Assembly: GCA_963782525.1 (NCBI GenBank)
Contig: CAWAKC010000007.1
Coordinates: 160,001 to 224,000, forward strand
From: Candidatus Bathyarchaeota archaeon
GTDB taxonomy: Archaea; Thermoproteota; Bathyarchaeia; Bathyarchaeales; Bathycorpusculaceae
DNA length: 64,000 nucleotides
Direction of reading: 5' to 3'
Below, piece by piece: positions 27,416 through 45,502 of the stretch. The position numbers were made by a program, and so were the translations under genes. The notes under the pieces were generated by a model, which made no database searches, was not told where the DNA came from, and saw only the letters and a program-made list of their open reading frames with translations. The first letter of the stretch is position 1, and the number at the start of each line of letters is the position of its first letter.

Positions 27416-28516
27416 GTGCAAGGAGAAAAGTACATGCCCAAAAACTACACTTACGATGACGCAGGGGTAAACCGCAAAAAACGCGTCGAATCCAAAAAAG
27501 CTCTAAAAATGCTGCAGGAAACTTACCAACACAGTCTCTACAGTGGGGTAATCCATTTGCCGTACGGAAACATCTTTGCCGTTGGTGAGAACACGTTTTT
27601 AGACATGGTCATCGAGGGTGTAGGCACCAAAGTTCTCATTGCACAGTTAGCTCAGAAATATGACACCATAGGCGTTGACGCTGTCGCCATGGCAGTTAAC
27701 GATGTGATTCGTTCAGGCGCAAAACCGCTTGCAATAGCCGATAACATTCATGCGCAAGCCAGTGAACCCACACTCGTAAAAGAATGGTTAAAAGGCATCA
27801 TACAGGGCGCTAATGAATCCGAGTGCCCAGTTACGGGCGGGGAAACAGGCGATGTGGCTGAAATAATAAAGGGTATAGTTGAAAATGCGGGTTTCGATAT
27901 GGTTGTAGCCTCCGTGGGCAAAGTTGGGCGCCAAGAAATCATTACTGGCGAGGGCATCAAGCCAGGCGACCCCATCATCGGTTTAGCCAGCAGCGGCGTA
28001 CATAGCAATGGTATCACGTTGGTAAGAAAGGTTCTCTTTAAGCAATGGGGCGGAAAATACAATCCAACCGACATTCCCGAAGGCTTGGATAGAGAGGTGG
28101 CACTTGAAGTGCTTGAACCAACAAAAATCTATGTTAAACCTCTCCTTAAGCTGGCTCGAGAAGTTAAAGTAAAAGCAGGAGTTCACATAACAGGCGATGC
28201 ATTCACCAAATTCAACAACCTCGCCAACTACTCACCAGGAATAGGCTTTGAATTCAACAATTTTAAGCCTCAACCAATCTTTGGCTTAATCCAAAAAACT
28301 GCAGGTGAACAAGGCTTAACCATAATGGATGAAGAAATGTTTAGAACTTTTAACATGGGGTGGGGCTTCGGCATAATCGTGGACAAAGCTGACATCGACA
28401 AAGCCATGAATACACTTGAACAGGATAGCATTAAGCCTGAGCGAATAGGCAAAGTTACAGCAAAAGAAAGAGTCGTCGAAATCGATTACCAGAACAAACA
28501 TATGATTTTAACATAA
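27416..28516 (+). CDS. purM: phosphoribosylformylglycinamidine cyclo-ligase (AIR synthetase)
   Basis: YDDAGV, EGVGTK, GGETG, SSGVHSNG, HITG, TFNMG. Confidence 0.95.
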   Translation: MQGEKYMPKNYTYDDAGVNRKKRVESKKALKMLQETYQHSLYSGVIHLPYGNIFAVGENTFLDMVIEGVGTKVLIAQLAQKYDTIGVDAVAMAVNDVIRSGAKPLAIADNIHAQASEPTLVKEWLKGIIQGANESECPVTGGETGDVAEIIKGIVENAGFDMVVASVGKVGRQEIITGEGIKPGDPIIGLASSGVHSNGITLVRKVLFKQWGGKYNPTDIPEGLDREVALEVLEPTKIYVKPLLKLAREVKVKAGVHITGDAFTKFNNLANYSPGIGFEFNNFKPQPIFGLIQKTAGEQGLTIMDEEMFRTFNMGWGFGIIVDKADIDKAMNTLEQDSIKPERIGKVTAKERVVEIDYQNKHMILT

Positions 28517-28574: not shown

Positions 28575-28826
28575 ATGAAATACGCTGCAAAAATCGAAGT
28601 CAGCCTCAAACCCGGACACAGTAATCCGGAAGGCGAAACTACTGCACGTTTACTAATAGAACTCGGCTACAAGGTGCAAGCGGTGGATATCAGCAAAGTC
28701 TACACCGTACACCTCGACGCCTCAACGCTCACTGAAGCAAAGACAAAAACGGAAGAAATGAGCAAACGCCTCTTGGCAAACCCAACCAAAGACAACTACA
28801 CCATAAGCGTCGTTGAAGCCAAATGA
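28575..28826 (+). CDS. purS: FGAM synthase subunit PurS
   Basis: LKPGHSNPEG, LLANP; overlaps purL. Confidence 0.92.
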   Translation: MKYAAKIEVSLKPGHSNPEGETTARLLIELGYKVQAVDISKVYTVHLDASTLTEAKTKTEEMSKRLLANPTKDNYTISVVEAK

Positions 28827-31210
28827 AGGCTAACCTCTATACCCAACGCAAAAACAGCCCCATTTTAGAGTTTCCTATAGAAAAAGCCGGCGAGGAACAA
28901 CTCGGTCAAATCAACAGCGAACTCGCCTTAGGCTTCAGCATACAAGAACTCAAAGAGATTCAATCATATTATAAAACAGAAAAACGTAACCCCACAGACG
29001 TTGAACTCCAAACAATCAGCCAAACATGGAGCGAACACTGCTGCCACAAAACATTCAAGGGCAAAATAGAGTTCGACGGCAAAGAAATCAACAGCCTCTT
29101 CAAAACCTACATAGCTAAAGCTACCAAACAAATCAAGGCACCTTGGTGCGTCAGCGTTTTTGAAGATAACGCTGGCATCGTCAAGTTTGACAAAGGCTAT
29201 GGTATAGCGGCTAAAGTGGAAACTCACAATCATCCCTCTGCGGTGGAGCCCTTTGGCGGCGCTGCAACAGGAGTCGGCGGAGTTATCCGAGACATTTTGG
29301 GCGTGTGGGCTGACCCAATCGCATGCACCGACGTTTTGGGTTTTGGTCCCTTAGATTATGACTATAACAAACTTCCCATAGGAGTTAAACATCCTAAGTA
29401 TGTGTACATGGGTGTCACCGCAGGAATTAGCGCATATGGCAACAACATGGGCATTCCAACTGTAAACGGCGCCATATACTTCGACGATTCCTACACGGGA
29501 AATGTCGTCGTCTACTGTGGCTGCATCGGTCTCTTACCCCTAAACAGGTACGCAAAAAACGCAAAAGTCGGCGACATCGTAGTTTTATCAGGCGGAAAAA
29601 CAGGACGTGACGGCATCCACGGCGTGACCTTCGCATCCGCCGAACTCACCGAAAAATCGGAAGAAATCTCGCGGTCAGCCGTCCAAATCGCAGACCCCAT
29701 CGAAGAAGAAAAAGTAAAAAGAGCAATAGTAGAAATCCGCGACCTCCAACTTGCTTCAGCTGTGACCGATATAGGAGGAGGAGGTTTATCTTCAGCTGTC
29801 GGCGAAACAGCAGAACGTTTCAACTGCGGAGTCACCGCTGACTTAGCGAAGGTGCCTTTGAAGTATCAAGGTTTGGCGCCGTGGGAAATTTACCTCTCCG
29901 AATCCCAAGAACGAATGTTAATCACTGTTGCGCCCGAGAATTTGGAGCGAGTTATGGCTGTTTTTGAGAAAGAAGACGTTATAGCTACAGCAATTGGGAT
30001 ATTGACACCTGAGAGACGCCTGAAACTCACTTACAATGACGAAACAGTCTCCGACGTAGACATGACTTTCCTCTTCAACCCTTGCACCAGCAGCAAAGTG
30101 GCCACCTTCGAGAAAACAGACTTCACTGAACCAGAATTCCCAGAGCCAGCAAACCTCACCGAGACCTTGCTGCAACTGCTGGCAGCCCCAAACATCGCCA
30201 GCAAAGAAAGCGTAATCCGCACATACGACCATGAAGTCAAAGGCAACACAACCCTCAAACCACTTCAGGGCGAGTACGCGGGACCAAACGACGCAGCCGT
30301 ACTAAAACCACTGGATGATTCCCTAAAATGTCTAACTATCTCCTCCGGCATGAATCCAAACTACGGAAAGATTGACGCGTACTGGATGGCAGCTTCAGCA
30401 ATCGACGAAGCCATACGCAACAACATCGCTGTAGGCGGAAGAAGAATTTCGCTTTTAGACAATTTCACCTGGGGCAACCCAGAGAAAACAGAACGCCTAG
30501 GCTCGCTAGTTAGAGCTTGCGAAGCATGCTACGACTTTGCAGTCGCATTCAAAGCGCCATTTATCTCAGGCAAAGACAGCCTCTACAATGAATCGCCGCT
30601 GGGTCCAATAACCTCAACACTCTTAATCACTGCAGTTGGCGTAATCCCAAACATCCAATCCACCACATCCATGGACCTCAAAGCAGCAGGCAACCTCCTG
30701 TATCTAATCGGCGAAACATTCAACGAACTCGGCGGATCCGAATACTACAAACTTAAAGGCTACCTCGGCGCCAGTGTACCCAAAGTGAAGGGAGCAAAAG
30801 CTAAACGCACATTCAAAGCTGTAACCAAAGCCATTGATGAAGGTTTAGTCAAGTCTTGTCATGACCTCTCGGAAGGCGGTTTGGCAGTGGCGGCGGCTGA
30901 GATGGCGTTTGCAGGCGGCTATGGCTTAGAACTGGATCTGCGCAAAGTGATAGGTAAAGAATTAACACGCAACGATTTCATATTGTTCTCTGAATCAAAC
31001 AGCCGCTTCCTAATCGAAGTCGCGGAAGCGGACAAGGAAGATTTTGAGGATTTGATGAAGGGTAAAAACTGCGCCCTAATCGGCAAAGTAACCAAAGAGC
31101 AGAAACTCCTCGTCCACGGGATGAACGGCAAAGTCGTTGTTGACGCTTCACTCGAAACGCTTCGGAGTAGCTGGAAAAAAACCCTCAGCCCAGAGGAGGC
31201 ATCACAATGA
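28823..31210 (+). CDS. purL: FGAM synthase subunit PurL
   Basis: WSEHCCHK, ETHNHPS, GAATGVGG, SESQER, HDLSEGGL. Confidence 0.97.
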   Translation: MKANLYTQRKNSPILEFPIEKAGEEQLGQINSELALGFSIQELKEIQSYYKTEKRNPTDVELQTISQTWSEHCCHKTFKGKIEFDGKEINSLFKTYIAKATKQIKAPWCVSVFEDNAGIVKFDKGYGIAAKVETHNHPSAVEPFGGAATGVGGVIRDILGVWADPIACTDVLGFGPLDYDYNKLPIGVKHPKYVYMGVTAGISAYGNNMGIPTVNGAIYFDDSYTGNVVVYCGCIGLLPLNRYAKNAKVGDIVVLSGGKTGRDGIHGVTFASAELTEKSEEISRSAVQIADPIEEEKVKRAIVEIRDLQLASAVTDIGGGGLSSAVGETAERFNCGVTADLAKVPLKYQGLAPWEIYLSESQERMLITVAPENLERVMAVFEKEDVIATAIGILTPERRLKLTYNDETVSDVDMTFLFNPCTSSKVATFEKTDFTEPEFPEPANLTETLLQLLAAPNIASKESVIRTYDHEVKGNTTLKPLQGEYAGPNDAAVLKPLDDSLKCLTISSGMNPNYGKIDAYWMAASAIDEAIRNNIAVGGRRISLLDNFTWGNPEKTERLGSLVRACEACYDFAVAFKAPFISGKDSLYNESPLGPITSTLLITAVGVIPNIQSTTSMDLKAAGNLLYLIGETFNELGGSEYYKLKGYLGASVPKVKGAKAKRTFKAVTKAIDEGLVKSCHDLSEGGLAVAAAEMAFAGGYGLELDLRKVIGKELTRNDFILFSESNSRFLIEVAEADKEDFEDLMKGKNCALIGKVTKEQKLLVHGMNGKVVVDASLETLRSSWKKTLSPEEASQ

Positions 31211-32025
31211 ACACTGAAGAAATCAAAGTCTGCGTAATGCGTGTCGGTGGAACCAACTGCGATGCAGAAACTCAACGTGCCTTCCAAGAGTTGGGCGTAC
31301 AAGCTGAAATAGTCCATGTAAACGAATTAATCAAACGCCGTAACCTTTTGGATTATTCGGTGCTGGTTTTTCCAGGCGGCTTCTCCTTTGGCGACTACGT
31401 GCGTTCAGGCGTAATTTTTGCAAGACACCTATCCGCGAACCTCGCAAAAGAGATGGAAACTTTCATCGATGAAAGCAGACCCATATTAGGCATATGCAAT
31501 GGTTTTCAAATTCTTGTCGAATACGGTTTGCTTCCAGGCTTCAAAGGCATGAGCGAATACCCCGAAGCCACATTGACAACCAATGAGCCGGCAGGCTTCA
31601 AGTGCCAATGGACCTACCTAAAACAAGAAAACAAAGGCAAATGCATGTTCACAAACAAAATTCCCGCTGGAAAAGTCGTCAATTTACCAATCGCACATGG
31701 CGAGGGACGACTCCTGTTCCCCAAAGAGCAAGAACAGGCGTTGCTCAAGAAACTCATCGATGAGGACATGCTGGTCTTCCGCTACTGCGACAAAGACGGC
31801 AAGGTCGCCGACGGCAAATACCCAGTCAGCCCCAACGGCTCATTCTACGACATCGCAGGCATCTGCAACAGGGAAGGCAACATATTCGGTTTGATGCCGC
31901 ATCCGGAAAGGGCGATGTACTGGTGGCAGCAACCAAACTGGACACGCGAGCAACAAATGCTTCAGTACGGCGACGGCAAAATGATCTTCCAAAGCATAAT
32001 CGACAAACTAACCAAGATAGGCTAA
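31207..32025 (+). CDS. purQ: FGAM synthase glutaminase subunit PurQ
   Basis: GTNCD, PGGFSFGD, GICNGFQ, MPHPER. Confidence 0.97.
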   Translation: MNTEEIKVCVMRVGGTNCDAETQRAFQELGVQAEIVHVNELIKRRNLLDYSVLVFPGGFSFGDYVRSGVIFARHLSANLAKEMETFIDESRPILGICNGFQILVEYGLLPGFKGMSEYPEATLTTNEPAGFKCQWTYLKQENKGKCMFTNKIPAGKVVNLPIAHGEGRLLFPKEQEQALLKKLIDEDMLVFRYCDKDGKVADGKYPVSPNGSFYDIAGICNREGNIFGLMPHPERAMYWWQQPNWTREQQMLQYGDGKMIFQSIIDKLTKIG

Positions 32026-32922
32026 ATCCTTCGCGTAGGGCAAGCCTGCGCGGGCGCCCATAGCCAACACTTTTCGGGACCCAACAAAATTGCCCAGTTG
32101 ACCGCATTCGTAGAGACTTTTTTCGTGGATTAAACCGTAGAGAAAGCCCGCGTTGAAAGCATCTCCCGCGCCGGTGGTGTCGAGTGCTTTAACTTTGAAG
32201 GGTTCCACACTGAGATGTTCTTGACCATCCGTAACGTAGCAACCTTTGCTTCCGAGTTTCACCGCCACGATCTTGACGCCCATACCAATCATGAAATCGG
32301 CGCCTCTACGAAAGTCTTCTTCGCCTGTTAACAGTTCAAGTTCAGCCGCATTAGGCATCAAAACGTGGGAGTTCTTAATTAGGGGTTCTATGACGCCGAA
32401 ACCTTTTTGTGCATACACAGAGCCCGGATCGAAGCTGATTTCGACCCCTTCAGGCAAGGCGCTTAAGAGTTTTTTTTGTGCACGGAACGATTTTTCACCT
32501 ACAAAAGAGGATAGGTGGACGAGTTTGGTTTGGGAAACGTATTCGTATTTGATTTCTCTGGGCTCGATTAAGTCGTTGACGCCTGAGTTAATGTAGAGTG
32601 TTCTTGCGCCTGTTCTGTCCACGAAACCCATCACTGAGCCGCTTCTGCCCTTTGTTGTATCGATGATTCCGCGGGTGTCCACGCCTTCGGCTTTGAAGCA
32701 GTCAAGCTGCAGTTTGCCTTCGCGGTCGCCAGCAACTTTTCCTATGAAACCAACTTTGCAGCCAAGCCTAGCTAGCCCTACAATCGTGTTTGCGGCTGAG
32801 CCTCCGCAGGCTTCCTTGTAGTCTTCGATGAAGCTTTCTTTTTCAGCGGTTGCAAATTTGTCTACTTTGAAGAGCATGTCAACGTTGAGTGCTCCGAATC
32901 CTATTACGTCAAATTTTGTCAT
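32008..32922 (-). CDS. PfkB/ribokinase-family kinase (EhaT-like)
   Basis: [20 protein letters not shown]; ATGA overlap with ftr-like gene. Confidence 0.92.
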
Positions 32923-33827
32923 ACAAACAACTCTTTTAATGGGATTTTGTGTTCGCCCAGTTTGCCGCCGTAGTTACCAGCGGATATCCGCACGACGCCA
33001 TCTACGTCTAATACGGCTTTTATTCCTGCTTTGGTGGCTTCTTTAACAGCGTCTATGGAAATGCCGTCGAAAACGATTTCGGCGATGTAGTTGACGCCTT
33101 CTGGAACCTTCGATTCCTTGCCTAAGCGTGATTTAAGCGAGGGACAGTACAGGTGGTTGGTGGTAGGCCCTATTTTCGGATAATGGGTTTCGGGTTTGGA
33201 ACCAGCTGAACAGATATCAAAGGTAGTCACGACGCCATACACTTTGTGAATTGCCTTCAGGGCTTTGGCGCCCGCGTAATTAAGCGCCTCTTTTGATGTG
33301 CACATTATCCAAAAGTTGCCGCCCATAACACCCCGAGCGTAACCAAGATACCGTTCAATAACAAAGTCAGGAACCATAAGTGGAACAACGATGACTTCTC
33401 TACCAAAACGCTTTTCGACCCACTCATAGCCATCGCCGCAGTGACCCACACTCTCCATCATGTCTAACTTGCCCTCGGACCTTGGTAAAGCATCAAAAAC
33501 GGCGGTGAAGGGTTTAACGAGGATGTCTTGGCGGATGCGGTAAGAGAGTTCGGTTTCGAACTTTTTTAGTGATTCCGCGAAAGTTTTTTTGGGATTGATT
33601 TCGCCCCAAAACTGCAAGGTTGCGCCCATGCGTTTGTCGGGTGTTTCGTTTGGGTTTAGGTATTTTTCTACGCCACCTTCAGTTCTGCCAATGACAACCG
33701 ACGGAGTCGCTGTGGAGTCTTCAGCTGCCTTACGCATACTCTGTTCATCATCCGCAGTAATAATTACCCTGCAAAAAAGCCCCGTAAACGCTTCAGCGTA
33801 AGTGTCTTCGATTACTGCTTTACCCAT
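32919..33827 (-). CDS. ftr: formylmethanofuran:tetrahydromethanopterin formyltransferase-like protein (divergent, EhaS-like)
   Basis: [34 protein letters not shown]; [13 protein letters not shown] and [12 protein letters not shown] differ from canonical Ftr. Confidence 0.88.
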
Positions 33828-34910
33828 TTATCCAAGTCTCCCGATGGCTACTCCACGAACGCTCTTCCTAAACGCACTGCTCTCTTTTATGAGTGATTCC
33901 ATATTTTTGGCTGAAACTATTTGAATTTTGGGCAGGGCATCAGGGTACAGGGTTGAAAGCTGTTTGAGAAGGGCCTCGTCAACCGTAATTTTATTAAGAG
34001 ATTCATAATCCCATGAACCAAGAGCCTTCAGGGTTTTTGCTTTGCCAAACTTGCAGAATAAGTCAACTATCACTGCCGTGACTAGGTTGCTTTCTGACTG
34101 TACAGCCACCTCAGCGTTCTTCACTGCATAGCTGTTTCCGTTGAAAGACACAGTTAAGCCGCCGTAATCGCGGATAAGTTTGAAGGCTTCCACGTCAGTT
34201 ATGCTGTCGCCCACATACATGACATCCCCTAATCCCACTCCTAATCGTTTCGCTGCGTCACGAATAGATTCAGCTTTTTGTTCCCCACCAACCGTCACGA
34301 CATCGATGAGGAATTTTCCGACAAACATCTTAGGAATTAATCTCCAGAAAATCTCATCCAACCGTTGGATAATGGCTTGGTCGCGGATTGAAAAATCTTC
34401 GATTGTTTTTGCGTTCGGGGGAATATCGATTAGGTGCATATTTGCGATTTCTTGCGCTATTTCCCTCAACAGCTCTTTCTCTTTGGGGGTTATGGGGATT
34501 TTGTCGAGGGCTACTTTTGTGCAGTAAGTGTTCTTGTAGGGGAATTCGACTGCTTTGCAGAGTGCTTTGATGTAATGCTCGTAGCTAGTGCTAACGATAA
34601 AGGAATCAGCTATTTTTTGTATATGGTTTAGGGTGATTTTGCTGTTGGAGATTAGTATTAAGTTTTTTGAAGAGAAATCGTCCATCTGGCTATCAGTTAT
34701 TCCGTAAGCTTTGAAAAAGGGCAAAATCAACTTTAGCGTGCTTCCGGCGGAGTAACCAGGCTTCTTTATCGCATCAGCCAAAACGTCATCGTAGAGGCTG
34801 ATATTTGTGAAAAATTTGTCGCCATTTGGAATAAAATTTTCAGCTAACTCGAAAGCGTTATCGTTTTTGGAAATGGGCCCTTCGCAGTCGGAAACAAAGA
34901 TCCGTTTCAA
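33828..34910 (-). CDS. HAD-superfamily hydrolase (EhaR-like)
   Basis: FVSDCEGPIS motif I, STSY motif II, YVGDSITD motif IV, SFNGN. Confidence 0.82.
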   Translation of the reverse strand: MKRIFVSDCEGPISKNDNAFELAENFIPNGDKFFTNISLYDDVLADAIKKPGYSAGSTLKLILPFFKAYGITDSQMDDFSSKNLILISNSKITLNHIQKIADSFIVSTSYEHYIKALCKAVEFPYKNTYCTKVALDKIPITPKEKELLREIAQEIANMHLIDIPPNAKTIEDFSIRDQAIIQRLDEIFWRLIPKMFVGKFLIDVVTVGGEQKAESIRDAAKRLGVGLGDVMYVGDSITDVEAFKLIRDYGGLTVSFNGNSYAVKNAEVAVQSESNLVTAVIVDLFCKFGKAKTLKALGSWDYESLNKITVDEALLKQLSTLYPDALPKIQIVSAKNMESLIKESSAFRKSVRGVAIGRLG

Positions 34911-36328
34911 CGTTTGTGCCTCAACTTATCCATGTGAGTGATGCTTTTGGCTATGTGTTGTTTTGAGGCGACGTCGGTTCGGTTCCAGAGTGCACCGCCC
35001 GTGATAGTAATGGCGCCTTCTTGGCTGATTTGGCGTGCTTCCTCGATACTGCTACCGATGCCAAGGACGCCGATAGCGCGAGATTTAAGCGCGTAGTTTT
35101 TACCATCTCGCAGTTCCATAGAGCCAGGGTAGATTCGGATTTTATTTCCGTACTTTTTAGTTAATTCCTGAGCTTTTGTGAGGTCAACTGGCGTATTGAT
35201 GACGGTTTTATCAACTATGTTTGAGAATGTTTCTGCGTAACCGCCGTAGTCTGCCGGGACTTTATAGGTTAGAACTGTCGCAGACTTCTCCATCACAACG
35301 CCTCTGAGATTACCATCCGCCATTTTAAGGCAGACATCTACGAAGTCGTCTTTTATGATTGGGAGGAGGTTCATGATTTCAGGGTCACCCGGGCGGCTGT
35401 TAATTTCGAGGATTTTGATGCCCTTGCCTGTATGCATAAAAGCAAGGTACAATGGGACACCACGAAGCGCGGTGTCATCGCTGATTTTTGCTTTCCAACC
35501 TGTGAAAACTTTGTTGGCCAAAACCAGTTCCTGTTCACGTTCAGCAGCTGTTAAGAACGGCAGCCAATCAACAACGTCCTTGTAGGAACCCATGCCACCC
35601 GTGTTGGGTCCTTTGTCGTCGTCGAAGGCACGTTTGTAGTCACGGGTGTCGGGCAAGGGGATGAAGTGTTTGCCGTCGCAGAAGCCCATGCAGCTGGATT
35701 CTTCACCATCGATTTTTTCTTCGATAATAACTGAACCGTATTTGAAGTTGGACATAAAGTGCTCAAAAAGTTGCTCGCGGTTTACAAAGTGATCGCCCCA
35801 GACGCCAACGCCTTTGCCCAAGGCGGGTTTGTCGGGTTTAACAACGGCTTGGTTGTCCAATTCATCCAGCCATTGGTAAACATCTTTCCGTACATCTTTT
35901 CCTTTGTAATCGGCTGGGTGAAAAACTTTGAAGCGCGGGTTAGCTTCAGGCGCTATCTCTTCGAAAAGCACTCTTTGAGCAACTTTGCTTTCTTCTATAG
36001 CGTATTCTTTGGTGGGGCAAATAACGGGTATGCCAGTTTGTTTCTCGATTAGGTCGCGTATTCCTTCGATTATAGGTTTCTCGGAGCCGACCAGAACAAA
36101 ATCGAGTTTGTCCTTGTTTTCCTCTGCGAATTTGCTGATTTCTTGGATGTCAAGGTTCGGGATAACCTTGTGTTTGGTAGCGTGCTCTGCATTGAAGGGG
36201 TTGCATTGTTTGTCGGCTACGTAGAGTTCCACCTGGTATTTTTTGCTTCTTAGAAGAGCATCTGCCATGGCGACTTCTCGTGCGCCGTAAGAAATAACTA
36301 GGACACCTACTTTTTCCATCCAAGACAC
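34907..36328 (-). CDS. purD: phosphoribosylamine-glycine ligase (GAR synthetase)
   Basis: GAREVA, VVKPD..GKGV, DYKRAFDDDKGPNTGGMG, EINSRPGDPE. Confidence 0.95.
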   Translation of the reverse strand: MSWMEKVGVLVISYGAREVAMADALLRSKKYQVELYVADKQCNPFNAEHATKHKVIPNLDIQEISKFAEENKDKLDFVLVGSEKPIIEGIRDLIEKQTGIPVICPTKEYAIEESKVAQRVLFEEIAPEANPRFKVFHPADYKGKDVRKDVYQWLDELDNQAVVKPDKPALGKGVGVWGDHFVNREQLFEHFMSNFKYGSVIIEEKIDGEESSCMGFCDGKHFIPLPDTRDYKRAFDDDKGPNTGGMGSYKDVVDWLPFLTAAEREQELVLANKVFTGWKAKISDDTALRGVPLYLAFMHTGKGIKILEINSRPGDPEIMNLLPIIKDDFVDVCLKMADGNLRGVVMEKSATVLTYKVPADYGGYAETFSNIVDKTVINTPVDLTKAQELTKKYGNKIRIYPGSMELRDGKNYALKSRAIGVLGIGSSIEEARQISQEGAITITGGALWNRTDVASKQHIAKSITHMDKLRHKR

Positions 36329-36367
36329 CGTTAGTGAATAGACATTGCAGGGAACGCTTAATAGCAG

Positions 36368-37852
36368 TTACGCCTGAGCTTCTTCGGATTCGTAGATTCT
36401 GTTTTTCTCTTCGAAGCCTTCTTGGAAGCGTTTTTTCATTATGGTAGCCATTTTCTGCGCACACGGCGTTGGATACTTGCCTGTGACGCAGGCTAAGCAA
36501 AGCTCGTTTTCTGTACAACCTATCGCTCGAATGAGTCCCTCGAGGGATTGGTAGCATACGGCATCTGCACCAATGATTTTAGCGATTCCCGCTGGATCTT
36601 GTCTTGAACCGATGAGTTGCCCATATGTTGACATGTCGATGCCGTATAAGCAGGGACCAATTATACGTGGGAAAGTTACGAAGACATAGACTTTTTTGGC
36701 GCCTACTTTCCGCAGTTTCTCGATGATCACTTTGGTTGTATCTCCGCGGACGATACTGTCCTCGGTTATTATGACACGTTTCCCTGCAACTTTGCTGCCT
36801 AAAATGTTAATTTTCTTATCAATAGTCGAGAACCGTTCCGTATTCAGCAGAATAAAGGCTCGTTCGGTAACGTAGCGATGTCGCCTTGAAGCTCGTTCCC
36901 AACGTAAACCTGACTCTTCATGAACCCCCATCGCAGAGTCGTCGCCAGTCTCAGGAACCGACATGATTATGTCGCCGTCCTTGGCGATTTCTGGGAATTC
37001 CCTCACGATATTTCTGCCGAATTCCTCGCGCATTTCATAGACGTATTTGTCGCCGCCGAAAGTTGAGTCGGGCCTTGCAAAATAAGCGTACTCAAAAGCG
37101 CAGAAGGCTTCACGAGGGTTTTGGATAAGTTGGGTGCGTTTGAAGCCATCAGGTGAAACTGTTACGAGTTCGCCCGGTTTTAATTCAAAATCTTGCACAA
37201 AACTGTTCATGTCCAAGCTGACGGTTTCAGATGAAAAAGCAAACGTTTTCCCATTTGGGTCATGTCCAGCGCACAGGGGTTTTATGCCATGCGGGTCCTT
37301 GAATGCAAAGAATTCTCCGTCTCCCGTTATACCTGTTACTGAAAACGCTCCATCTAAGCTCTCCATTACGTTGCGAGCGGCAGCCTCCAAAGTTTTGCCC
37401 TGCTTAAGTCCCAGAAGGAATTTGTGACAGACAATGTCGGAGTCGCAGTTGTAGATGAAGTCCGAGAAGTTTTGGTTCATTTCTTTTTTTAGTGGCATCG
37501 TGTTGACGATATTGCCGTTAAATGAGAGGGCAACTGTTATTCCATCACTGGATGCAACGACTGGCTGAGTGCCGTCAATTATTGACACATCGTCACATTT
37601 GCCCGATGTTGTGTACCTTACGTTGCCTATGCCTATGGATCCGGGCAAGCGGCCAAACCATTCTTGGATAGCGTTGCTCTTGACTTTAGGGACTAGATCC
37701 AAGTTCTTGTAGGTGAAGAATTGTTTGTCGCTGTATGTTAGGAAACCATGTGATTGGTGTCCCCTATGGTTCTGTGCACGTAAACCCCAATAAACATACG
37801 GAAAAACTGGTTGATTATCATAATTTATTGCCCCAAAGATACCGCAGCCTAT
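36368..37852 (-). CDS. purF: amidophosphoribosyltransferase, probable ATA start
   Basis: Frame extends upstream of track start 37702 through QNHRGHQSHG to (M)GCGIFG; NVRYTT, FNGNI, DSIVRG, Fe-S cysteines. Confidence 0.93.
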   Translation of the reverse strand: MGCGIFGAINYDNQPVFPYVYWGLRAQNHRGHQSHGFLTYSDKQFFTYKNLDLVPKVKSNAIQEWFGRLPGSIGIGNVRYTTSGKCDDVSIIDGTQPVVASSDGITVALSFNGNIVNTMPLKKEMNQNFSDFIYNCDSDIVCHKFLLGLKQGKTLEAAARNVMESLDGAFSVTGITGDGEFFAFKDPHGIKPLCAGHDPNGKTFAFSSETVSLDMNSFVQDFELKPGELVTVSPDGFKRTQLIQNPREAFCAFEYAYFARPDSTFGGDKYVYEMREEFGRNIVREFPEIAKDGDIIMSVPETGDDSAMGVHEESGLRWERASRRHRYVTERAFILLNTERFSTIDKKINILGSKVAGKRVIITEDSIVRGDTTKVIIEKLRKVGAKKVYVFVTFPRIIGPCLYGIDMSTYGQLIGSRQDPAGIAKIIGADAVCYQSLEGLIRAIGCTENELCLACVTGKYPTPCAQKMATIMKKRFQEGFEEKNRIYESEEAQA

Positions 37853-38507: not shown

Positions 38508-39941
38508 TTATGGTTGCCATTTTTCAATAAGGTACTTGGGTATCTCTGAGCTGTCGCGTGGTCCAACTTGGACTTTCCAGCCGCTGAGTTCTTCGATTTC
38601 GCCGCTGATGCGTGAGGCTTTGCCAGGGATGATGATTTTGCGGTGTTTGACTTTCTGTTCTATGCCGCTGGCTTTGATTGCTTCTGCGACTCTTTCGGCT
38701 GTGAGTTTGCGTCCTGCGACTCCGCTGTCGATTGCTGAGCCCTCTGTTTCGACGACGATTAAGTAGGCGTTGAGTTTGTTTGCTTCGATGTCTGAGGCGA
38801 CTGTGTAGTAGGTAAGGGCGAAGTTTGATGTGAACATGACTGGTGAGTTCTCGTCTGGGGTGCCGTAGACTTTGAGGCCTGGTGCGACTGCGACTGGTTT
38901 GCGTGGATCAGTGTAGATGTTCTGGCGTAGTACGGTTGTTGGTAGGAGTGCCCATCCGTCGTTGCCGTGCATGATTAATACGTCTGCGTACCGGACTACG
39001 AGCATGGATGCAATGTATGCTTCGCGCCATTTTACGAGGTCGTCTGCTGTTTCGCCTTTATCTACCCAAGCGACCATGGGGACGCCGAGTAGAGGTAAGC
39101 CTGCGAGTTCTTCGCCGCCTTTGGTTGCTGCTCTTCGGAGCATGGTAAAGTTGTCGATTGTGTCTGGTAAGCCTTCGTTTATGAATGTGCCAGGGTCTAG
39201 GACGATGTCTTTTACGCCGTAAGCCATCAGGGTTTTTGCGAGTGAGACGAGGGTTGTTAGGTCGTTTGGTGCAGATGCGACTATTGGGCAATCGTACATT
39301 AAAGCGAGTTCTGCCATGTCTTTCCAGTTGGTTTGGTTTGCTGCGTAGAGGAGTGGTCTTGCTTTTGGTGCTGCCATTAAGCCTGCTTCAGCGATTGCTG
39401 GGCTCATGGTGCAGAGAATCATAGGCAACTTTGTGGTATCTGAAACTTTTTTGACTGTTGCCTTGAATTTGTCTGCATCACCTGAAGTGCAACGAACTGC
39501 TATCATGTCGAGTTTTAGGGTGTTTCCGATGTATTCGAAAGTAAAGTTATCTGTTTTTTGGACGCGTGAGACAATTTCGGCATCGCTCATTTCGTCAGTT
39601 ACGTCGATTGCGATGGCTGTTGGGTTTTTATATGTGAATTCGTGGCGGTACATGACTAGTTTGCCGCCGATTTTTTTGGCTTTGTCGCCGACGCCTACGA
39701 TGACTTCTTTGACTGCTGGTTTTAGGAGTTCTTTGAGTACAGCGTATGCTTTGGCGTTTTCGGGTTTGAGGAGTGGTTTGCAACTGTCGAGTTCTACTTC
39801 GCGGTTGACAATTTTTGTGGCGAATGCCATGCAGTTGTTGACGCCGCATTCTTTGCAGTTAATTTTTGGCAAGCTCTTGTAAATGGTTATGGGGCTTAGT
39901 TCTTTTAATCCGCCTTTTTTCTTTTCTGCCATATTAGTCAT
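38508..39941 (-). CDS. cdhE: ACDS complex gamma subunit (corrinoid Fe-S protein large subunit)
   Basis: LPKINCKECG..CMAFA, YTDPRKP, NFALTY, GPRDS. Confidence 0.96.
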   Translation of the reverse strand: MTNMAEKKKGGLKELSPITIYKSLPKINCKECGVNNCMAFATKIVNREVELDSCKPLLKPENAKAYAVLKELLKPAVKEVIVGVGDKAKKIGGKLVMYRHEFTYKNPTAIAIDVTDEMSDAEIVSRVQKTDNFTFEYIGNTLKLDMIAVRCTSGDADKFKATVKKVSDTTKLPMILCTMSPAIAEAGLMAAPKARPLLYAANQTNWKDMAELALMYDCPIVASAPNDLTTLVSLAKTLMAYGVKDIVLDPGTFINEGLPDTIDNFTMLRRAATKGGEELAGLPLLGVPMVAWVDKGETADDLVKWREAYIASMLVVRYADVLIMHGNDGWALLPTTVLRQNIYTDPRKPVAVAPGLKVYGTPDENSPVMFTSNFALTYYTVASDIEANKLNAYLIVVETEGSAIDSGVAGRKLTAERVAEAIKASGIEQKVKHRKIIIPGKASRISGEIEELSGWKVQVGPRDSSEIPKYLIEKWQP

Positions 39942-39947
39942 GTCTCC

Positions 39948-41189
39948 TTAAGCTTTCACTGTGACCCAGTTTGCGTATTTTGATGGGTCTGCTTTTTTGC
40001 CGCTTGTTAGGTAGTTTGTGACGTCTTTTAGTGTTTTTACTGCTGCTGGATGCATCATCATGAATAGGTCTACGCCTGCAAGCAACAGTGTTATGGCTGT
40101 TGTTACTTCCCAGAGTGGACCTCTGAGTTCGCGTGGTTCCCATTGAGCATCCATCTTTAGCCAGGCTTCTCTTGCTGCCCAAGCGTTGGTTGTGCCTGAG
40201 GACATTGGGTGTGCGAGTTCAATGTCGCCCATTAAGCCGCCGATTCTTGCGCGTTCCATGTTTGTGAATGCGTAATCTAAGCCGTAGCCTAAGGCTGCTG
40301 TGGTTAGGTCCATAACGATGTCTTCTCTTGCGACGTAGTCATAGAGGCGTCTGTTTAATTCGCGTGCCAAGTTGAGGTCCATTGGTGTGAATGAGAGGAT
40401 TGCGTGGCCTGCTTTTTTGATGAATTTTGCGCATTTTTCGACATCCATGTCGCGTGTGACTGAGCTAATTAGGAAACGTTCGCCTGGGAATTGTGCGCAT
40501 ACTTCTTCGAAGACCGCTGTGTCTTTAACTGGGTCGCCGCATCCGCCTATAACGAGTGGAACGTCAACTGCTTGCAGGACTTTCTCTATGGTTTTGCATG
40601 CATCTTTTGGTGTTGCATCTTTGAGTAGTGGATCTACACTGATTAGGTGCATTGTAACCATGTCTGCGCCGAATTTGTCAACAGCAAGTTTTGCCCAAGC
40701 TGCGGGGTCGCCGACGACGTCTTTAACGTGCATCTTTACGGCCTTTGACAGTGGAACTTCCATGTCGAAAACGTCTAAGGTTACAATTGGTTTGTGTGTT
40801 GTTGGTGCTTCAAAATTGTAGTAAGCGGGAGATACTTCTCCGCCTATGAGGAATGATTTGCCGCGTGTTCCGCCTTCGCTTTTTGTTGCCCCTAGTTTTA
40901 CTGTGGTGATTTTGTTCGGGTATTTTTCGATTGGTGGTAAAAAGGGTACTTGCAGCATGCTTAGTGGTTTGCCACCTGCTATTGCCGCGGTTGGTGGAAG
41001 CTTAAGTTTAGGCATTATTTGGCCTGCTGCGCCTGATTCGAAGATGATTTCGAGTTCTTTAGCATCAATTTGGAAGTCTTCCAGCTCAATGGTCTGGAAT
41101 TTTGCAAGAGCTGCTAGTAGGTCTTCGCTTAGCTGTAGTCCTTCAGCGTCTTTCTTTTTGTCGTTGTCGTTTTGGGGCGTTGAAATCAC
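39948..41189 (-). CDS. cdhD: ACDS complex delta subunit (corrinoid Fe-S protein small subunit)
   Basis: LGATKSEGGTR, ALGYGLDY, NAWAAREAW, MMHP. Confidence 0.96.
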   Translation of the reverse strand: MISTPQNDNDKKKDAEGLQLSEDLLAALAKFQTIELEDFQIDAKELEIIFESGAAGQIMPKLKLPPTAAIAGGKPLSMLQVPFLPPIEKYPNKITTVKLGATKSEGGTRGKSFLIGGEVSPAYYNFEAPTTHKPIVTLDVFDMEVPLSKAVKMHVKDVVGDPAAWAKLAVDKFGADMVTMHLISVDPLLKDATPKDACKTIEKVLQAVDVPLVIGGCGDPVKDTAVFEEVCAQFPGERFLISSVTRDMDVEKCAKFIKKAGHAILSFTPMDLNLARELNRRLYDYVAREDIVMDLTTAALGYGLDYAFTNMERARIGGLMGDIELAHPMSSGTTNAWAAREAWLKMDAQWEPRELRGPLWEVTTAITLLLAGVDLFMMMHPAAVKTLKDVTNYLTSGKKADPSKYANWVTVKA

Positions 41190-42598
41190 CGTTTGTCTTT
41201 GTTGTCTTTAACGGTTGTGATGATGACTTTGTTAGCGTAGATTTTTGCGTCTTTGAGTATGATTTTGAATCCGCCGGCCATAATTGGCATTGAGCTCATC
41301 GTTGCGACTGGCATCATGGTGCCTGCTGCTTCTTCGTTAACGGTTATGGCTTGTGCTTCTGCTGCTGGTGCTGCTTCTGCTGCCCATCTTGCTACGACTG
41401 GGTGATTCTTTGCTTTCAGGAATACTTTGAGTTCATCGACATTCTTGGCATCTTCTTCGGTTGCAATTTTGTCAACGACGTCTGCTGGGATGAAGTCTTT
41501 TACTTTTTCTTTTACTTCTTTAGGTACCCAAACGATGCGGTTCCATCCACCATCTGCAGCAAAGAATTTTTTGCTTCGCATGTATTCGATGGACATTCCG
41601 TGGAATCCGTCTATCTGTCGTCCGCCTGCTGCTGAATCTGCAAGGGTGCTGAAGGGTAAGCCGTTTACGGCTGCGCCTTTGAAGTTTCTTTGAACTACGC
41701 CTAATCCGTCAACTTCTGGGATATAGAAGGTTACTGCTTCGAAGCATCCGCATGAAGTGTGTGGATGGTCAAATGCTGTGTAGAGCCAGACCTTGGTGAC
41801 TTCGCCCATGCTGCGTTTCTTTGCGGCTTCGTTAACACCGCTGAATTCGCCTTTCTCTTCGTTGATCATTTCGCCTCGTGGAATTGCGAAGACTGGACCC
41901 TTAGGATCGATGCTTGCTGAGGCTTTACCGTCAAACCAGCTGATTGCACCGCAGTTGCTGTATCTTTGTGGAGTGATAATGCAGACGTGGCTTGGTGCGA
42001 ATGATTGGCAGAGTGCACATCCATAGAATGTGTCAACTTCGCTGTCTTTGAGGCCTCTGGCTTTTGCATCGCGTGATTCGTAGGCTTGCATTGCGTCAGG
42101 AGTCATTTCTTCGAGTTTTTTGGGGTCTGTTACGAAGGTAATTTGTACTTTCTCAATGATTGGTAGTTCACTTTTGAAGAGTCGCAGAAGTACTTGGCCG
42201 ATTGGTTCAAAACTGTTTAAGCCTTTAGCGAAGGATTTTTTGCCGATGCGTATCCAGATGTCATAGCGCTGGTTTAGGTGCATAAAGCCCTCGATGTAGT
42301 TTAGGTATCCGTGAATGCGTCTTTCTATGACACCTTCAAGGCCTGCATCGAGTTTTGCGCCTGCTGCTTCAACGAGGATGCCGAATGGGTATGCGCCGCC
42401 TTCTTTTAGGTCTTTTAAGTCTGGGCCAAGAATGGTGATTTTGCCATCTTGGATTTCATTCATGGGTTTTACTTTTGCCAATTCAAACTTTTGTTTGACT
42501 GTGGGTCCGCCGAGTTCTATTTGCATGTCGTTTCTTCGGATACGTTCTCCTTCGTAGATTACGCCAACTTCAACAGGTATATCTTTAAACATTGACAT
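41186..42598 (-). CDS. cdhC: ACDS complex beta subunit (acetyl-CoA synthase)
   Basis: YEGERIR, CALCQSFAP, HTSCGCFE. Confidence 0.97.
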   Translation of the reverse strand: MSMFKDIPVEVGVIYEGERIRRNDMQIELGGPTVKQKFELAKVKPMNEIQDGKITILGPDLKDLKEGGAYPFGILVEAAGAKLDAGLEGVIERRIHGYLNYIEGFMHLNQRYDIWIRIGKKSFAKGLNSFEPIGQVLLRLFKSELPIIEKVQITFVTDPKKLEEMTPDAMQAYESRDAKARGLKDSEVDTFYGCALCQSFAPSHVCIITPQRYSNCGAISWFDGKASASIDPKGPVFAIPRGEMINEEKGEFSGVNEAAKKRSMGEVTKVWLYTAFDHPHTSCGCFEAVTFYIPEVDGLGVVQRNFKGAAVNGLPFSTLADSAAGGRQIDGFHGMSIEYMRSKKFFAADGGWNRIVWVPKEVKEKVKDFIPADVVDKIATEEDAKNVDELKVFLKAKNHPVVARWAAEAAPAAEAQAITVNEEAAGTMMPVATMSSMPIMAGGFKIILKDAKIYANKVIITTVKDNKDKR

Positions 42599-42601
42599 TT
42601 T

Positions 42602-43147
42602 TTAATTTCCTCCTTCATTAAATTTTGAGGTCATTACTTTGAGGTTTACAGCCCAATCTTCTAGGCTTGCGTTGGGGAAAGACCAGCTTGCGTGTACATG
42701 ATAGAGGTTGTCGATAGTCATGGTCTTTAGGTCGGGTGCGAAGTGCTTGAGCCCCGAGAGGATAAGCGCTTCCATATAGTAGGGTAAGCCAACGAATATG
42801 ACAAGGTCAGGGTGTCCTTTGCCGTCGAGTCCTTGCCATGTTGGGTCAACGACTCTCTGGCCTATGTCCATTGCGGTCATGAAGCTTGCGGGAGTGTACC
42901 CTCGTTTTATGAATTCACCGACCATGTGGGCTGTTGCTACTACTGGAACTTTAGAGGCGTTAGCGAAATCGATTAGATAATCGATTAGTTGTCGTCCATC
43001 CATCCAGCGTTCAGTGGCGTTGCTCCCCACAATAAGGAGGGGGCGAGCGGCTCTTTTGATCATTGCTACTGCTATCTCGGGCTTTTGGATTGGGTTTGCT
43101 TTTTTAGTTGCAGCTATTTCTGCACATTGCCATGGTTCACACGACAT
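42602..43147 (-). CDS. cdhB: ACDS complex epsilon subunit
   Basis: AARPLLIVG, WQGLDGKG, LKHFAP. Confidence 0.93.
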   Translation of the reverse strand: MSCEPWQCAEIAATKKANPIQKPEIAVAMIKRAARPLLIVGSNATERWMDGRQLIDYLIDFANASKVPVVATAHMVGEFIKRGYTPASFMTAMDIGQRVVDPTWQGLDGKGHPDLVIFVGLPYYMEALILSGLKHFAPDLKTMTIDNLYHVHASWSFPNASLEDWAVNLKVMTSKFNEGGN

Positions 43148-43153
43148 TCATAA

Positions 43154-45502
43154 TCACTCCTTAATTTTCCTGATCATTCTTGGAAGCATTGTCGGGTCAG
43201 GAATTATTGATTCCTTCCATCCTTTTGCTTTCAGAATTTCATTGATTTCATCTTTCATGGTTATGGGTATGTCAGCTGTTGTTCGAACGAACATGTCGAT
43301 GTCTGGAGGCATTACGCCGTAGTGACGCTTGTGTAAGTCGATATAGTGTGTTAGTTTTCCCATGCGCCCTTTCCATGTGTCGTTGGGTCTTAGGCATAAC
43401 TTTGCAATTTGGACCATTGCTTCTTGCGGGGTTTCGACTGTTTGGAAGAGATGTTCTGGTGTGGGACCGACGTTTACTTTATCGCCTGTACGTGCATCGT
43501 AAACTTCCCAGTTTTCAGGTTTATCTGATCTACCCATTAGCATACGACGGTATTTGCTACCGTGTGGACCAACGAGTACTGGAACGCCTAAACTCCAGAA
43601 GCCTGCTGCAATTGATGCTGCTTTTTGTGAATATGCACCCCAAGCTAAACCGACTGCGCCCACACGGTTGTGTATGTAGTCAGCGATTTCTTCATAGTTT
43701 CCTCGTAGGTTGCGTTTGGCGAAGATGTTTGCTACTTTGATTGCTGCGCCTGCGATGTGTGGGTTAGAAACGCATGATCCGACATTTAGTACACCGCCAG
43801 CTTCGAAGCCGCCTGGGAATTCTTCGTAGAGTGTCTTGCCTTCGTCATTTTTGTAGGAACCAGCAGACATAGCTGAGCAACCAGAAGTCACTACGATGTA
43901 TCGTCGTGAAGCGAATTCTCTACAGATATCATATACGTCTTTACCTCCATGTGGATAGTTAGCGCAACCGACTAATGCAACAATTCCCGGAATTTCACCT
44001 AGTACGATTGGACCACCGACACTCCTGATTTCAACATCTGACACAGCACCTCTTCCTGAGCGACAGAAGTTCGTTTCTTCGAGCATTTTCTTCTCGCCGA
44101 CTTTCAGTATGAAGCTGTGGATTTCTAGTTTCACAGGGCAAGCTTGTTCGCATCTTCCACATCCAATGCATTCCTCATATAACGCAGCAAGTTTAGAGTA
44201 ATCACCTTCAGCAGCCGCCTTCACTGCAGGTTCAATGCTAAGGTCTTGAGGGCAACTTCTTTGACACATGTTGCAGTGACGACATTTCTTTGCGAGTTCC
44301 TTGATTTGCGCTAATTCTGGAAGTGACTTCATTTTTTTGCGGATTGGAGCAATTTTTTGCGCTACTCTTACAGCAACTTCGCCGACTTTATCAGGGTCAA
44401 GAATTAGAACGCCTGCCACTTTGCCGCTAACGAGGTCTTCAACAATTTGGTCTGCAGGATCGTTTGTGCGGTCTTTGTAACCTATACAGTTTTTCTCTGA
44501 CGCGGCAATGACGGGAGCTTTAACACGTTCAGCCTCGAGTGAAGCATCTGTGCGTACACATTGTTCGTCTAGAACCACGACGTCTGCAAATCCGCCGCGT
44601 ATGAATCGAAGTTCCCACGAAATTGGTCCAACGATTTTTCCGCGGTCGAAATATCTTGTATTGTCAATGGCAGTGCAACATAAGCCAACTACTTCCATTT
44701 TATCGTCAAGTTTGTGGTCTTTCATGTAATCAATAATTCCGACTGAAGGCACGACGTTGTGACCAATGCACATGATAACTGGTTTCTTTTGATCAACTGT
44801 TCCAATACCCATCTGGATCAGTGGAGCTTCAGGATCTGCCTTTGGGAAGCCGAGAGTTGAAATCTGAGCAAGATCTGCTATTTCCATGCCTACTTGGTCC
44901 ATTCTACCTGCATGAAATGCTTTGGATTCAAAATCTAAATTATTTGATTCTTGGCCTGTATGTGCAGCAGAAACTAGATGGGTAATTTGTGATTCAGTGT
45001 ATGATAAAATATCGTCTAAGTCGCCAAGGGTCTCAGGTTTTACTCCGGTGATAAGCCTTGTACATGGCGCTTCAACTTTAACGTTTAATCCTCCCACATC
45101 GAGTGGAAACCTTCGACCGTATTTTTCAATTAAATGGTCAACAACATGCCGAGCGTGACCGTTATGGGTTGCAGCGCCAATACAACAAGCGATAAGCACA
45201 ATACGAGATGACTGAGCTGCAATGTCGAGTCCACATGCACCGCGTTTCCCAGCAGTCAAGTCACATTTTCCGTATGTACAAAGGCAGCATAGGTCGCAAT
45301 CAGGCATGTAGAAGGGCTTGTACTTGTTGAGCAGCATCATGTCCCAATCTCGCAGGGTAGTTATGTGGGGCATTGGAGTTGGACCCATTGGTTCAGTCCA
45401 GTTATCGTTGACAACTTTGCCAATGGATAATTCAAGATTTTTAATAAGACCACTACTGGTCTTCATTTCGTCTATTTTTACATGGACGTTTTTACTAGTC
45501 AA
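43154..45502 (-). CDS. cdhA: ACDS complex alpha subunit (CO dehydrogenase)
   Basis: CDLCCLCTYGKC, GHN, GLCCT, DEQC, two 4Fe-4S motifs, GSCVSN. Confidence 0.97.
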   Translation of the reverse strand: MTSKNVHVKIDEMKTSSGLIKNLELSIGKVVNDNWTEPMGPTPMPHITTLRDWDMMLLNKYKPFYMPDCDLCCLCTYGKCDLTAGKRGACGLDIAAQSSRIVLIACCIGAATHNGHARHVVDHLIEKYGRRFPLDVGGLNVKVEAPCTRLITGVKPETLGDLDDILSYTESQITHLVSAAHTGQESNNLDFESKAFHAGRMDQVGMEIADLAQISTLGFPKADPEAPLIQMGIGTVDQKKPVIMCIGHNVVPSVGIIDYMKDHKLDDKMEVVGLCCTAIDNTRYFDRGKIVGPISWELRFIRGGFADVVVLDEQCVRTDASLEAERVKAPVIAASEKNCIGYKDRTNDPADQIVEDLVSGKVAGVLILDPDKVGEVAVRVAQKIAPIRKKMKSLPELAQIKELAKKCRHCNMCQRSCPQDLSIEPAVKAAAEGDYSKLAALYEECIGCGRCEQACPVKLEIHSFILKVGEKKMLEETNFCRSGRGAVSDVEIRSVGGPIVLGEIPGIVALVGCANYPHGGKDVYDICREFASRRYIVVTSGCSAMSAGSYKNDEGKTLYEEFPGGFEAGGVLNVGSCVSNPHIAGAAIKVANIFAKRNLRGNYEEIADYIHNRVGAVGLAWGAYSQKAASIAAGFWSLGVPVLVGPHGSKYRRMLMGRSDKPENWEVYDARTGDKVNVGPTPEHLFQTVETPQEAMVQIAKLCLRPNDTWKGRMGKLTHYIDLHKRHYGVMPPDIDMFVRTTADIPITMKDEINEILKAKGWKESIIPDPTMLPRMIRKIKE

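Follow-up and report, generated by a model that had tools for sequence, protein, structure and literature searches.

Ftr2, a divergent formyltransferase paralog encoded with a HAD-like protein and a PfkB kinase behind purF-purD, as a candidate for the missing GAR formylation step of Bathyarchaeia

The 64,000-nucleotide stretch of contig CAWAKC010000007.1 (positions 160,001 to 224,000) from a Candidatus Bathyarchaeota archaeon, hereafter the window, carries five genes head to tail on its minus strand: purF, purD, a gene for a HAD-like protein of the EhaR family, a gene for a divergent paralog of formylmethanofuran:tetrahydromethanopterin (H4MPT) formyltransferase, here called Ftr2, and a gene for an EhaT-like PfkB kinase (Table 1). 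The last three, referred to as the module, are considered here as candidates for the third step of purine synthesis, the formylation of glycinamide ribonucleotide (GAR) to formylglycinamide ribonucleotide (FGAR). An earlier annotation made by a model from the letters of the window (the sequence-only reading) had described the gene order and three translational junctions, all of which are confirmed on the sequence. The purD stop overlaps the HAD start (CGT TGA / TTG AAA at 34910-34907), the HAD and Ftr2 genes abut (GGA TAA ATG at 33830-33825), and the end of the Ftr2 gene overlaps the start of the kinase gene (GTA TGA / ATG ACA at 32922-32919). The purM-purS-purL-purQ genes lie on the plus strand and converge on this series, with purQ and the PfkB gene sharing 18 bases (32008-32025). 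The genome that carries the window (2.87 Mb, 12 contigs, 95.8% complete) is designated G000; other G-numbers and L-numbers denote the genomes and loci compared.

The genome contains purF, purD, purLSQ, purM, purE, purC and two tandem purP genes, and PurH was not found in it. PF00551, the Formyl_trans_N domain of PurN, has no match in the whole genome, window included. The best match to the PurT model TIGR01142 in the whole genome reaches only 47 bits, in a 1091-aa open reading frame (ORF) that we take as CarB-like by our own reading, confirmed by no search. A step-3 gene, whose absence beside purF, purD, purS/L/Q and purM the sequence-only reading had noted, was found neither in the window nor in the rest of the genome, and step 3 alone is without a candidate among the de novo purine steps of this organism. 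A separate canonical Ftr (Ftr1) is encoded at C1:336068-337069 and passes both NCBIfam cut-offs, with 392.7 and 377.3 bits (the latter for TIGR03119). FwdA is present as well (799 bits), as are MfnD-like and MptN-like ligases, both below their cut-offs. Because FwdA and Ftr1 are present, the genome is able to make formyl-methanofuran and N5-formyl-H4MPT. The tandem purP pair adjoins purC (purC-purP-purP, G000:C10:23435-26600), and some 4 kb upstream of this cluster the MptN-like ligase, a member of the RimK family, is encoded (C10:18296-19156). The purine intermediate 5-aminoimidazole-4-carboxamide ribonucleotide was considered as target of Ftr2 and ruled out, PurP being present in the genome.

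Ftr2 is related to canonical Ftr and FhcD (PDB 1ftr, 1m5h, 1m5s, 2fhj, 6s6y). It has both lobes at full length (PF01913 distal, PF02741 proximal), aligns with 1m5h from end to end (183 bits) and, at 338.6 bits, clears the cut-off of 297 set for the subfamily model NF002554. However, it fails the equivalog model TIGR03119 (237.8 against 292.6 bits). A search of 1.84 billion representative proteins gave 622 hits, and trees were built. The canonical clade, which holds the other Ftr of this genome and planctomycete FhcD-type loci, is closed off with a support of 100 (IQ-TREE quick, 58 rows; FastTree, 135 rows), and the window Ftr2 falls outside it; a tree to place this paralog had been proposed with the sequence-only reading. 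In the less redundant tree Ftr2 forms one 58-row clade with a support of 98. Over the three trees, from which the PDB Ftr sequences were left out, the separation of the canonical clade has a support of 92-100. Residue E250, the same in all of 25 Ftr2 sequences, is aligned to the Glu that 1m5h and 1m5s carry in their YEIV motif. The catalytic Glu is, we assume, the residue numbered Glu245 in M. kandleri Ftr. In FhcD, Glu252 is the catalytic Glu that stabilises the oxyanion (PMC6926001; this source, Kaster 2011, Brown 2011 and Chadwick 2022 are cited from excerpts). At sixteen positions a residue conserved in Ftr2 is seldom found in canonical Ftr. At four of these, a canonical aromatic residue is replaced (C130, I146, L161 and P249), and an invariant Arg99 has been gained where the canonical enzymes mostly have Gly. 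These positions, read from the alignment and not placed on a liganded structure, suggest that one substrate site of Ftr2 has been rebuilt.

The two partner proteins belong to families named after hydrogenase subunits. Dozens of homologs of the HAD-like protein are named "energy-converting hydrogenase A subunit R" by JGI. In Methanothermobacter, EhaS and EhaT were first annotated as formyltransferase and ribokinase; they are described as Ftr-like and ribokinase-like and counted as Eha subunits only for their co-transcription with ehaA-R (Kaster 2011). The end of the eha transcription unit thus encodes the same three families, as the sequence-only reading had stated. By contrast, at the window and at about 40 other Bathyarchaeia loci the triplet follows purF-purD and not a hydrogenase. 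No hydrogenase gene occurs among the annotated genes within about 10 kb on either side of the module, a genome-wide eha search not having been made, and at this locus the module is not encoded within an eha gene cluster. The EhaR profile matches PDB 1y8a (189 bits), the AF1437 protein of Archaeoglobus fulgidus, which shares the D-x-E-G-P motif and whose entry, titled "hypothetical protein", gives no function. In 10 EhaR sequences the residues D8, E10, G11, P12, S107-T108-S109 within the S107-Y110 stretch, K212 and G234-D235-S236-I237-T238-D239 are invariant. By our own reading of these motifs, EhaR appears to carry all four HAD catalytic motifs (nucleophile Asp; Ser/Thr; Lys; acidic pair), with a Glu (E10) in the position where phosphatases carry the second Asp (Asp+2). 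The EhaT-like kinase keeps the PfkB motifs in a set of 10 sequences, namely G40, G41, N191 (in at least 90%), E194 of NxxE, and D248-T-T-G-A-G-D254 of DTTGAGDAF. It fails the ribokinase equivalog TIGR02152 (161.8 bits, cut-off 299.65) and passes none of the NCBIfam equivalogs. Its profile separates it from other kinases of its own genome (493 bits against 70 bits for the next paralog). A complex prediction for EhaR with EhaT (score 0.00, mark 0.32) tells nothing for or against binding.

Related loci were collected by a contig scan with a profile of six Ftr2 sequences, which returned 80 loci, 44 of them Bathyarchaeia Ftr2 loci. Since ORF calling dropped some overlapping genes, gene presence per locus was counted by tblastn. 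The HAD gene was found in 39 and the PfkB kinase gene in 43 of the 44 loci; purD stands upstream of HAD-Ftr2-PfkB in 37 of them, and 40 of the loci extend far enough on that side to hold it. The arrangement seen in the window is therefore not a matter of chance, and the pur linkage is not peculiar to one genome. Further pur genes join the series in several cases: L050 reads purQ-purM-purD-HAD-Ftr2-PfkB, and G028 reads purF-purD-(gap)-Ftr2-PfkB-purE-purM. The linkage recurs outside the class in Candidatus Borrarchaeum yapensis, an Asgard archaeon (L075), with an Ftr2 only 43% identical. There, purF-purD-HAD-Ftr2-PfkB-purL-purQ-purM lie on one strand, so that the module occupies precisely the place between the genes of step 2 and step 4, and operon order is pathway order. 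Two Bathyarchaeia without Ftr2 (G068 and G036) have a Formyl_trans_N ORF directly after purF-purD, in the place of the module.

The distribution of Ftr2 was then compared with that of PurN and PurT. The first sample comprised 151 genomes of the phylum of the window, which we take to be Thermoproteota, with a completeness of at least 80% and with G000 included. Ftr2 profile scores were bimodal (357-489 bits against 286 or less), and a match of at least 200 bits was counted as PurT-like. PurD was found in 105 genomes: 14 have Ftr2 only, 55 PurN only, 34 PurT-like only, one PurN with PurT-like, and one (G121, whose PurD is cut by a contig end) none of the three. In 43 of the 46 genomes without PurD, none of Ftr2, PurN and PurT was found. 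Every Ftr2 genome of this sample falls within the class of the window, where 15 of 20 genomes have the gene; this count takes in G108, with a fragment after purD at a contig end, and G123, in 300 contigs with no PurD found. In the same class, a PurT-like gene lies some 15 kb away from purD in G002 and G116, and G020 is without PurD, Ftr2, PurN and PurT.

The second sample consisted of 121 genomes, all with PurD, from the phylum to which G160 (the genome carrying L061, Candidatus Alkanophaga) belongs, presumably Halobacteriota. Ftr2 is present in 54 (at least 392 bits, the remaining genomes reaching 300 or less). PurN and PurT are both missing in 50 of the 54, and the other four, three of which form one tight clade, have PurN. 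The 67 genomes without Ftr2 have PurN (51), PurT (10), both (3) or neither (3), so that 64 hold at least one; two of the three with neither do hold EhaR and EhaT. The predicted anti-correlation with purN/purT is therefore strong in both phylum-wide samples. Any Ftr was detected in 104 of these genomes; the 62 among them without PurN divide into 50 with Ftr2, 10 with PurT and two with neither, and because of this split the use of folate or methanopterin alone does not explain the pattern. The partners follow Ftr2: EhaR is present in 50 of the 54 Ftr2 genomes and in six of the 67 others, and the EhaT-like kinase in all 54 (at least 235 bits in 53, a partial match beside EhaR in the last). EhaR and EhaT are often adjacent. 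As no more than nine genomes have EhaR and Ftr2 within 15 kb of each other, their co-occurrence is more than a matter of shared operons.

A further 23 genomes of other lineages were reached through the non-Bathyarchaeia Ftr2-like loci. PurT is present in none of them, and PF00551 goes unmatched in 18. The matches in the remaining five belong to three Asgard genomes of the Loki type with typical PurN, and to G170 (213 bits, 308-aa ORF) and G168 (58 bits), where the Formyl_trans_N matches are atypical. In the Borrarchaeum genome both PurN and PurT are missing. Four Loki-type genomes have EhaR-like, Ftr2 and EhaT-like genes, all unlinked. In no sampled genome do PurT and Ftr2 occur together. One Ftr2 of the second phylum sample (L106, G240:C1:1730938-1731834) nests inside the Bathyarchaeia clade, with 76% identity to L055, which suggests gene transfer between phyla. 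The neighbours of EhaR-EhaT and Ftr2 outside Bathyarchaeia (Alba, serpin, CBS, ABC ATPase, Nre, semialdehyde dehydrogenase and a thymidylate-synthase-like ORF) gave no substrate lead. The last of these, a 446-aa ORF divergent from Ftr2 (L099:6795-8135, G223), would be another enzyme of one-carbon-dependent anabolism.

These observations can be set beside published ones. Two Archaeoglobi, M. kandleri and four Methanobacteria make purines although both PurN and PurT are missing and no GAR formyltransferase can be recognised in them (Brown 2011). An Ftr2 clade has been described in two groups of anaerobic methanotrophic archaea (ANME-1 and ANME-2a/b), Archaeoglobales, M. kandleri and Methanothermobacter (Chadwick 2022). 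In the excerpts of that paper the lack of PurN and PurT in ANME-1 is stated in a separate section, unconnected to Ftr2. Our literature search found no paper tying Ftr2 or EhaS to GAR formylation, and a term search of the accessible text of Adam 2022 and Casini 2023 returned no such link. Methanobacteria and Methanopyrus enter the comparison through these published descriptions alone and not through their sequences.

Taken together, it is probable that Ftr2, the EhaR-like HAD protein and the EhaT-like kinase provide the missing GAR to FGAR step in archaea that use methanofuran and H4MPT and lack PurN and PurT. Ftr2 shows two features expected of a GAR transformylase: it is linked to pur genes and mutually replaceable with PurN or PurT, the seven genomes in which Ftr2 and PurN coexist being the exceptions. 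Every computational test named with the sequence-only reading, which had proposed this role, gave a result that favours it. The proposal is thereby supported in part, its substrate, its donor and the removal and return of a phosphate being inferred. Ftr2 would keep the chemistry of Ftr, in which an amine attacks a formyl-amide while the conserved Glu holds the oxyanion. In the rebuilt site one carrier would give way to the glycyl amine of GAR or of a close derivative, and the formyl donor would be formyl-methanofuran or N5-formyl-H4MPT. EhaR and EhaT could act as a phosphatase-like protein and kinase pair whose target would be the ribose phosphate on either the substrate or the product of Ftr2. 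The proposed reaction resembles that of PurN, in that the glycyl amine of GAR likewise receives its formyl group from a carrier of the pterin or amine type. However, PurN has the unrelated Formyl_trans_N fold and a folate carrier, whereas Ftr2 travels with two extra proteins. PurT, an ATP-grasp enzyme, fills the same step in folate-free archaea as one protein with free formate and ATP; any use of ATP by the Ftr2 module would sit in the separate PfkB kinase. Compared with Ftr and FhcD, Ftr2 retains fold and catalytic residue and differs in its clade, its equivalog score, its clade-specific positions and its genomic company.

A more specific scheme, which we regard as possible but doubtful, is a three-enzyme cycle driven by ATP. 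EhaR would remove the 5'-phosphate of GAR, Ftr2 would formylate the riboside from formyl-methanofuran, and EhaT would rephosphorylate the product. Formyl-methanofuran would be too low in energy to drive the formylation alone, and the cost of one ATP would equal what PurT spends. Such a phosphate-off, phosphate-on cycle would explain why the three genes travel together.

Several observations weigh against the assignment of the module to GAR formylation, or limit it. A simple transfer of formyl requires no kinase and no HAD protein. The module genes mostly lie apart from one another in the second sample, and four PurN genomes have adjacent EhaR-EhaT pairs without Ftr2, so that these two serve some purpose by themselves. 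Ftr2 and typical PurN occur together in seven genomes (4 of the 54 of the second sample and three of the four Loki-type Asgard). These stand-alone pairs and the coexistence with PurN leave the account incomplete, and they appear to complicate in particular the idea that the HAD protein removes and the kinase restores a phosphate. Only in Bathyarchaeia and one Asgard genome is the module tightly linked to pur genes; Loki-type Asgard loci have neighbours unrelated to pur, and in ANME-1-like loci (L053, L056, L059) genes for TPR proteins, a class V fructose bisphosphatase (PF01950), a phosphofructokinase (PF00365) and a class-II aldolase-like protein stand between EhaR and Ftr2, a setting that is gluconeogenic instead of purine-related. 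Finally, because the genomes within each sample are related, there were fewer independent events than the counts suggest.

Part of this evidence could be accommodated if the module served purine synthesis indirectly, for instance by supplying formate or a ribose-phosphate precursor, with GAR formylated by a PurP paralog or by an unrecognised enzyme. PurP proteins are formate ligases of the ATP-grasp type, like PurT, and those of cluster II are without demonstrated function according to Brown 2011. Two PurP paralogs are encoded in tandem beside purC here and two also occur in four of five other Ftr2 genomes, which leaves another candidate for GAR formylation. A kinase and a HAD protein would moreover suit sugar-phosphate work, in keeping with the fructose bisphosphatase and phosphofructokinase genes that EhaR and Ftr2 flank in the ANME-1-like loci. 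We nevertheless consider this explanation unlikely. Methanobacteriales have a single PurP and still lack PurN and PurT (Brown 2011), which rules out a second PurP as sole explanation of the gap. Pairs made up of a cluster Ib PurP with one from cluster II occur in organisms that have PurT (Brown 2011, same excerpts), so duplication of PurP does not track the gap, whereas Ftr2 does. A Formyl_trans_N gene can occupy the very place of the module after purD, and in L075 the module stands between purD and purL.

The three proteins might instead have some other metabolite as their substrate, for example a cofactor or sugar phosphate, their exclusion by PurN and PurT being a by-product of ancestry and of the one-carbon carriers of each lineage. 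The EhaR-EhaT pairs in PurN genomes, the coexistence of Ftr2 with PurN and the lack of pur neighbours at most loci outside Bathyarchaeia are all in line with this, and look-alike HAD clusters listed by the Atlas in Thermoplasmatota and bacteria provide leads only. It is nonetheless quite unlikely, because the exclusion also holds against the folate-free PurT, with 60 of the 62 Ftr-bearing, PurN-less genomes having exactly one of Ftr2 and PurT, and because it operates within a single class, where two genera have swapped the module for PurN-like or PurT-like genes. Moreover, the genome of that class without PurD also has none of Ftr2, PurN and PurT, and the Borrarchaeum operon follows the order of the pathway. 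Very improbable, in our view, is that Ftr2 is a second isoenzyme of ordinary Ftr and that an Eha-type hydrogenase has EhaR and EhaT as its accessory subunits, the place they are given in the Methanothermobacter literature. The NF002554 score, the retained catalytic Glu and the co-transcription with ehaA-R (Kaster 2011) agree with it. However, annotated hydrogenase genes are lacking around the module, the TIGR03119 cut-off is failed, sixteen conserved positions differ from canonical Ftr, and exclusion by PurN and PurT would not be expected of an isoenzyme.

If Ftr2 and its partners do formylate GAR, they would be the third, and again non-homologous, way of carrying out a step universal to nucleotide synthesis, and would tie the one-carbon carriers of methanogenesis and of the archaeal Wood-Ljungdahl pathway directly to purine synthesis. 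Bathyarchaeia are among the most abundant archaea of sediments. The gap in GAR formyltransferase has been open since 2011 (Brown 2011), was restated for ANME-1 in 2022 and extends also to Bathyarchaeia; it is probably filled by the Ftr2 module. Re-annotation would then be due for thousands of genes that at present carry the names "Ftr" or "hydrogenase subunit R", and models of carbon flow in methanogens and methane oxidisers would change. Should the ATP-driven cycle in turn prove true, the EhaR, EhaS and EhaT "hydrogenase subunits" of Methanobacteria would be purine enzymes, and their co-transcription with Eha would couple the anaplerotic supply of ferredoxin for formyl-methanofuran directly to C8 of the purine ring. 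The locus names a concrete three-gene candidate for cloning, assay and deletion.

Table 1. Genes of the purine locus in the window and the neighbouring cdh cluster, with the profile matches on which the assignments are based.
Feature	Coordinates	Strand	Matches
purM	27416..28516	+	TIGR00878 265 bits, above cut-off
purS	28575..28826	+	Pfam and NCBIfam matches
purL	28823..31210	+	TIGR01736 680 bits
purQ	31207..32025	+	NF002252 320 bits
EhaT-like PfkB kinase, 304 aa	32008..32922	-	PF00294 177 bits
Ftr2, divergent formylmethanofuran:H4MPT formyltransferase paralog (EhaS-like), candidate GAR formyltransferase, 302 aa	32919..33827	-	PF01913 148.3 bits and PF02741 183.6 bits
EhaR-family HAD-like protein, 360 aa, motif I DxEGP	33828..34910	-	weak Hydrolase_3, Hydrolase and HAD matches
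purD (GAR synthetase), divergent type	34907..36328	-	GARS_N/A/C; TIGR00877 236.7 bits, below cut-off 288
purF (amidophosphoribosyltransferase)	36368..37852 (listed ORF 36368..37702)	-	GATase_6/7; TIGR01134 283.5 bits, below cut-off 350
cdh gamma, delta, beta, epsilon, alpha (CO dehydrogenase/acetyl-CoA synthase), neighbouring context	38508..45502	-	

The start of purF lies upstream of that of the listed ORF. The frame opens after a TGA at 37858-37856 and continues AAA ATA GGC TGC, so that an in-frame TGA stands two codons upstream of the ATA. The catalytic Cys is preceded by this ATA codon, with no ATG, GTG or TTG ahead of it. The upper limit of 37852 set by the sequence-only reading coincides with the only place where purF can begin. 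Translation probably starts at the ATA (37852-37850), which would place Met-Gly before the catalytic Cys. In 13 of the 14 related purF loci displayed (among L009-L041), the first codon is ATA, or ATC in two, with the catalytic Cys one codon on, and a purine-rich stretch mostly lies ahead of these starts. L036 and L041 are exceptions in context, with an in-frame ATG six codons upstream of purF. The pattern looks like a conserved non-canonical initiation of purF. PurD is also unusual. Scores of 215-270 bits, below the TIGR00877 cut-off, are found in module-bearing Bathyarchaeia, in G036 and G068, and in 24 genomes of the second sample, all 24 of which have EhaR. This divergent type of purD may travel with the module, or it may just mark a lineage.

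The annotated neighbours of the module are the pur genes, the cdh genes, which the sequence-only reading had placed alongside, a glyoxalase-fold gene and a pair of phosphate-transporter genes. Two adjoining plus-strand ORFs farther off in the window (18872-21274 and 21289-23595; 800 and 768 aa) match no Pfam family at an E-value of 1e-5. A minus-strand ORF of 278 aa (26479-27315) has a weak 35-bit match to the model of the CBASS Cap12 NAD hydrolase, and a B12-binding radical SAM protein is encoded on the plus strand at 15613-16995.

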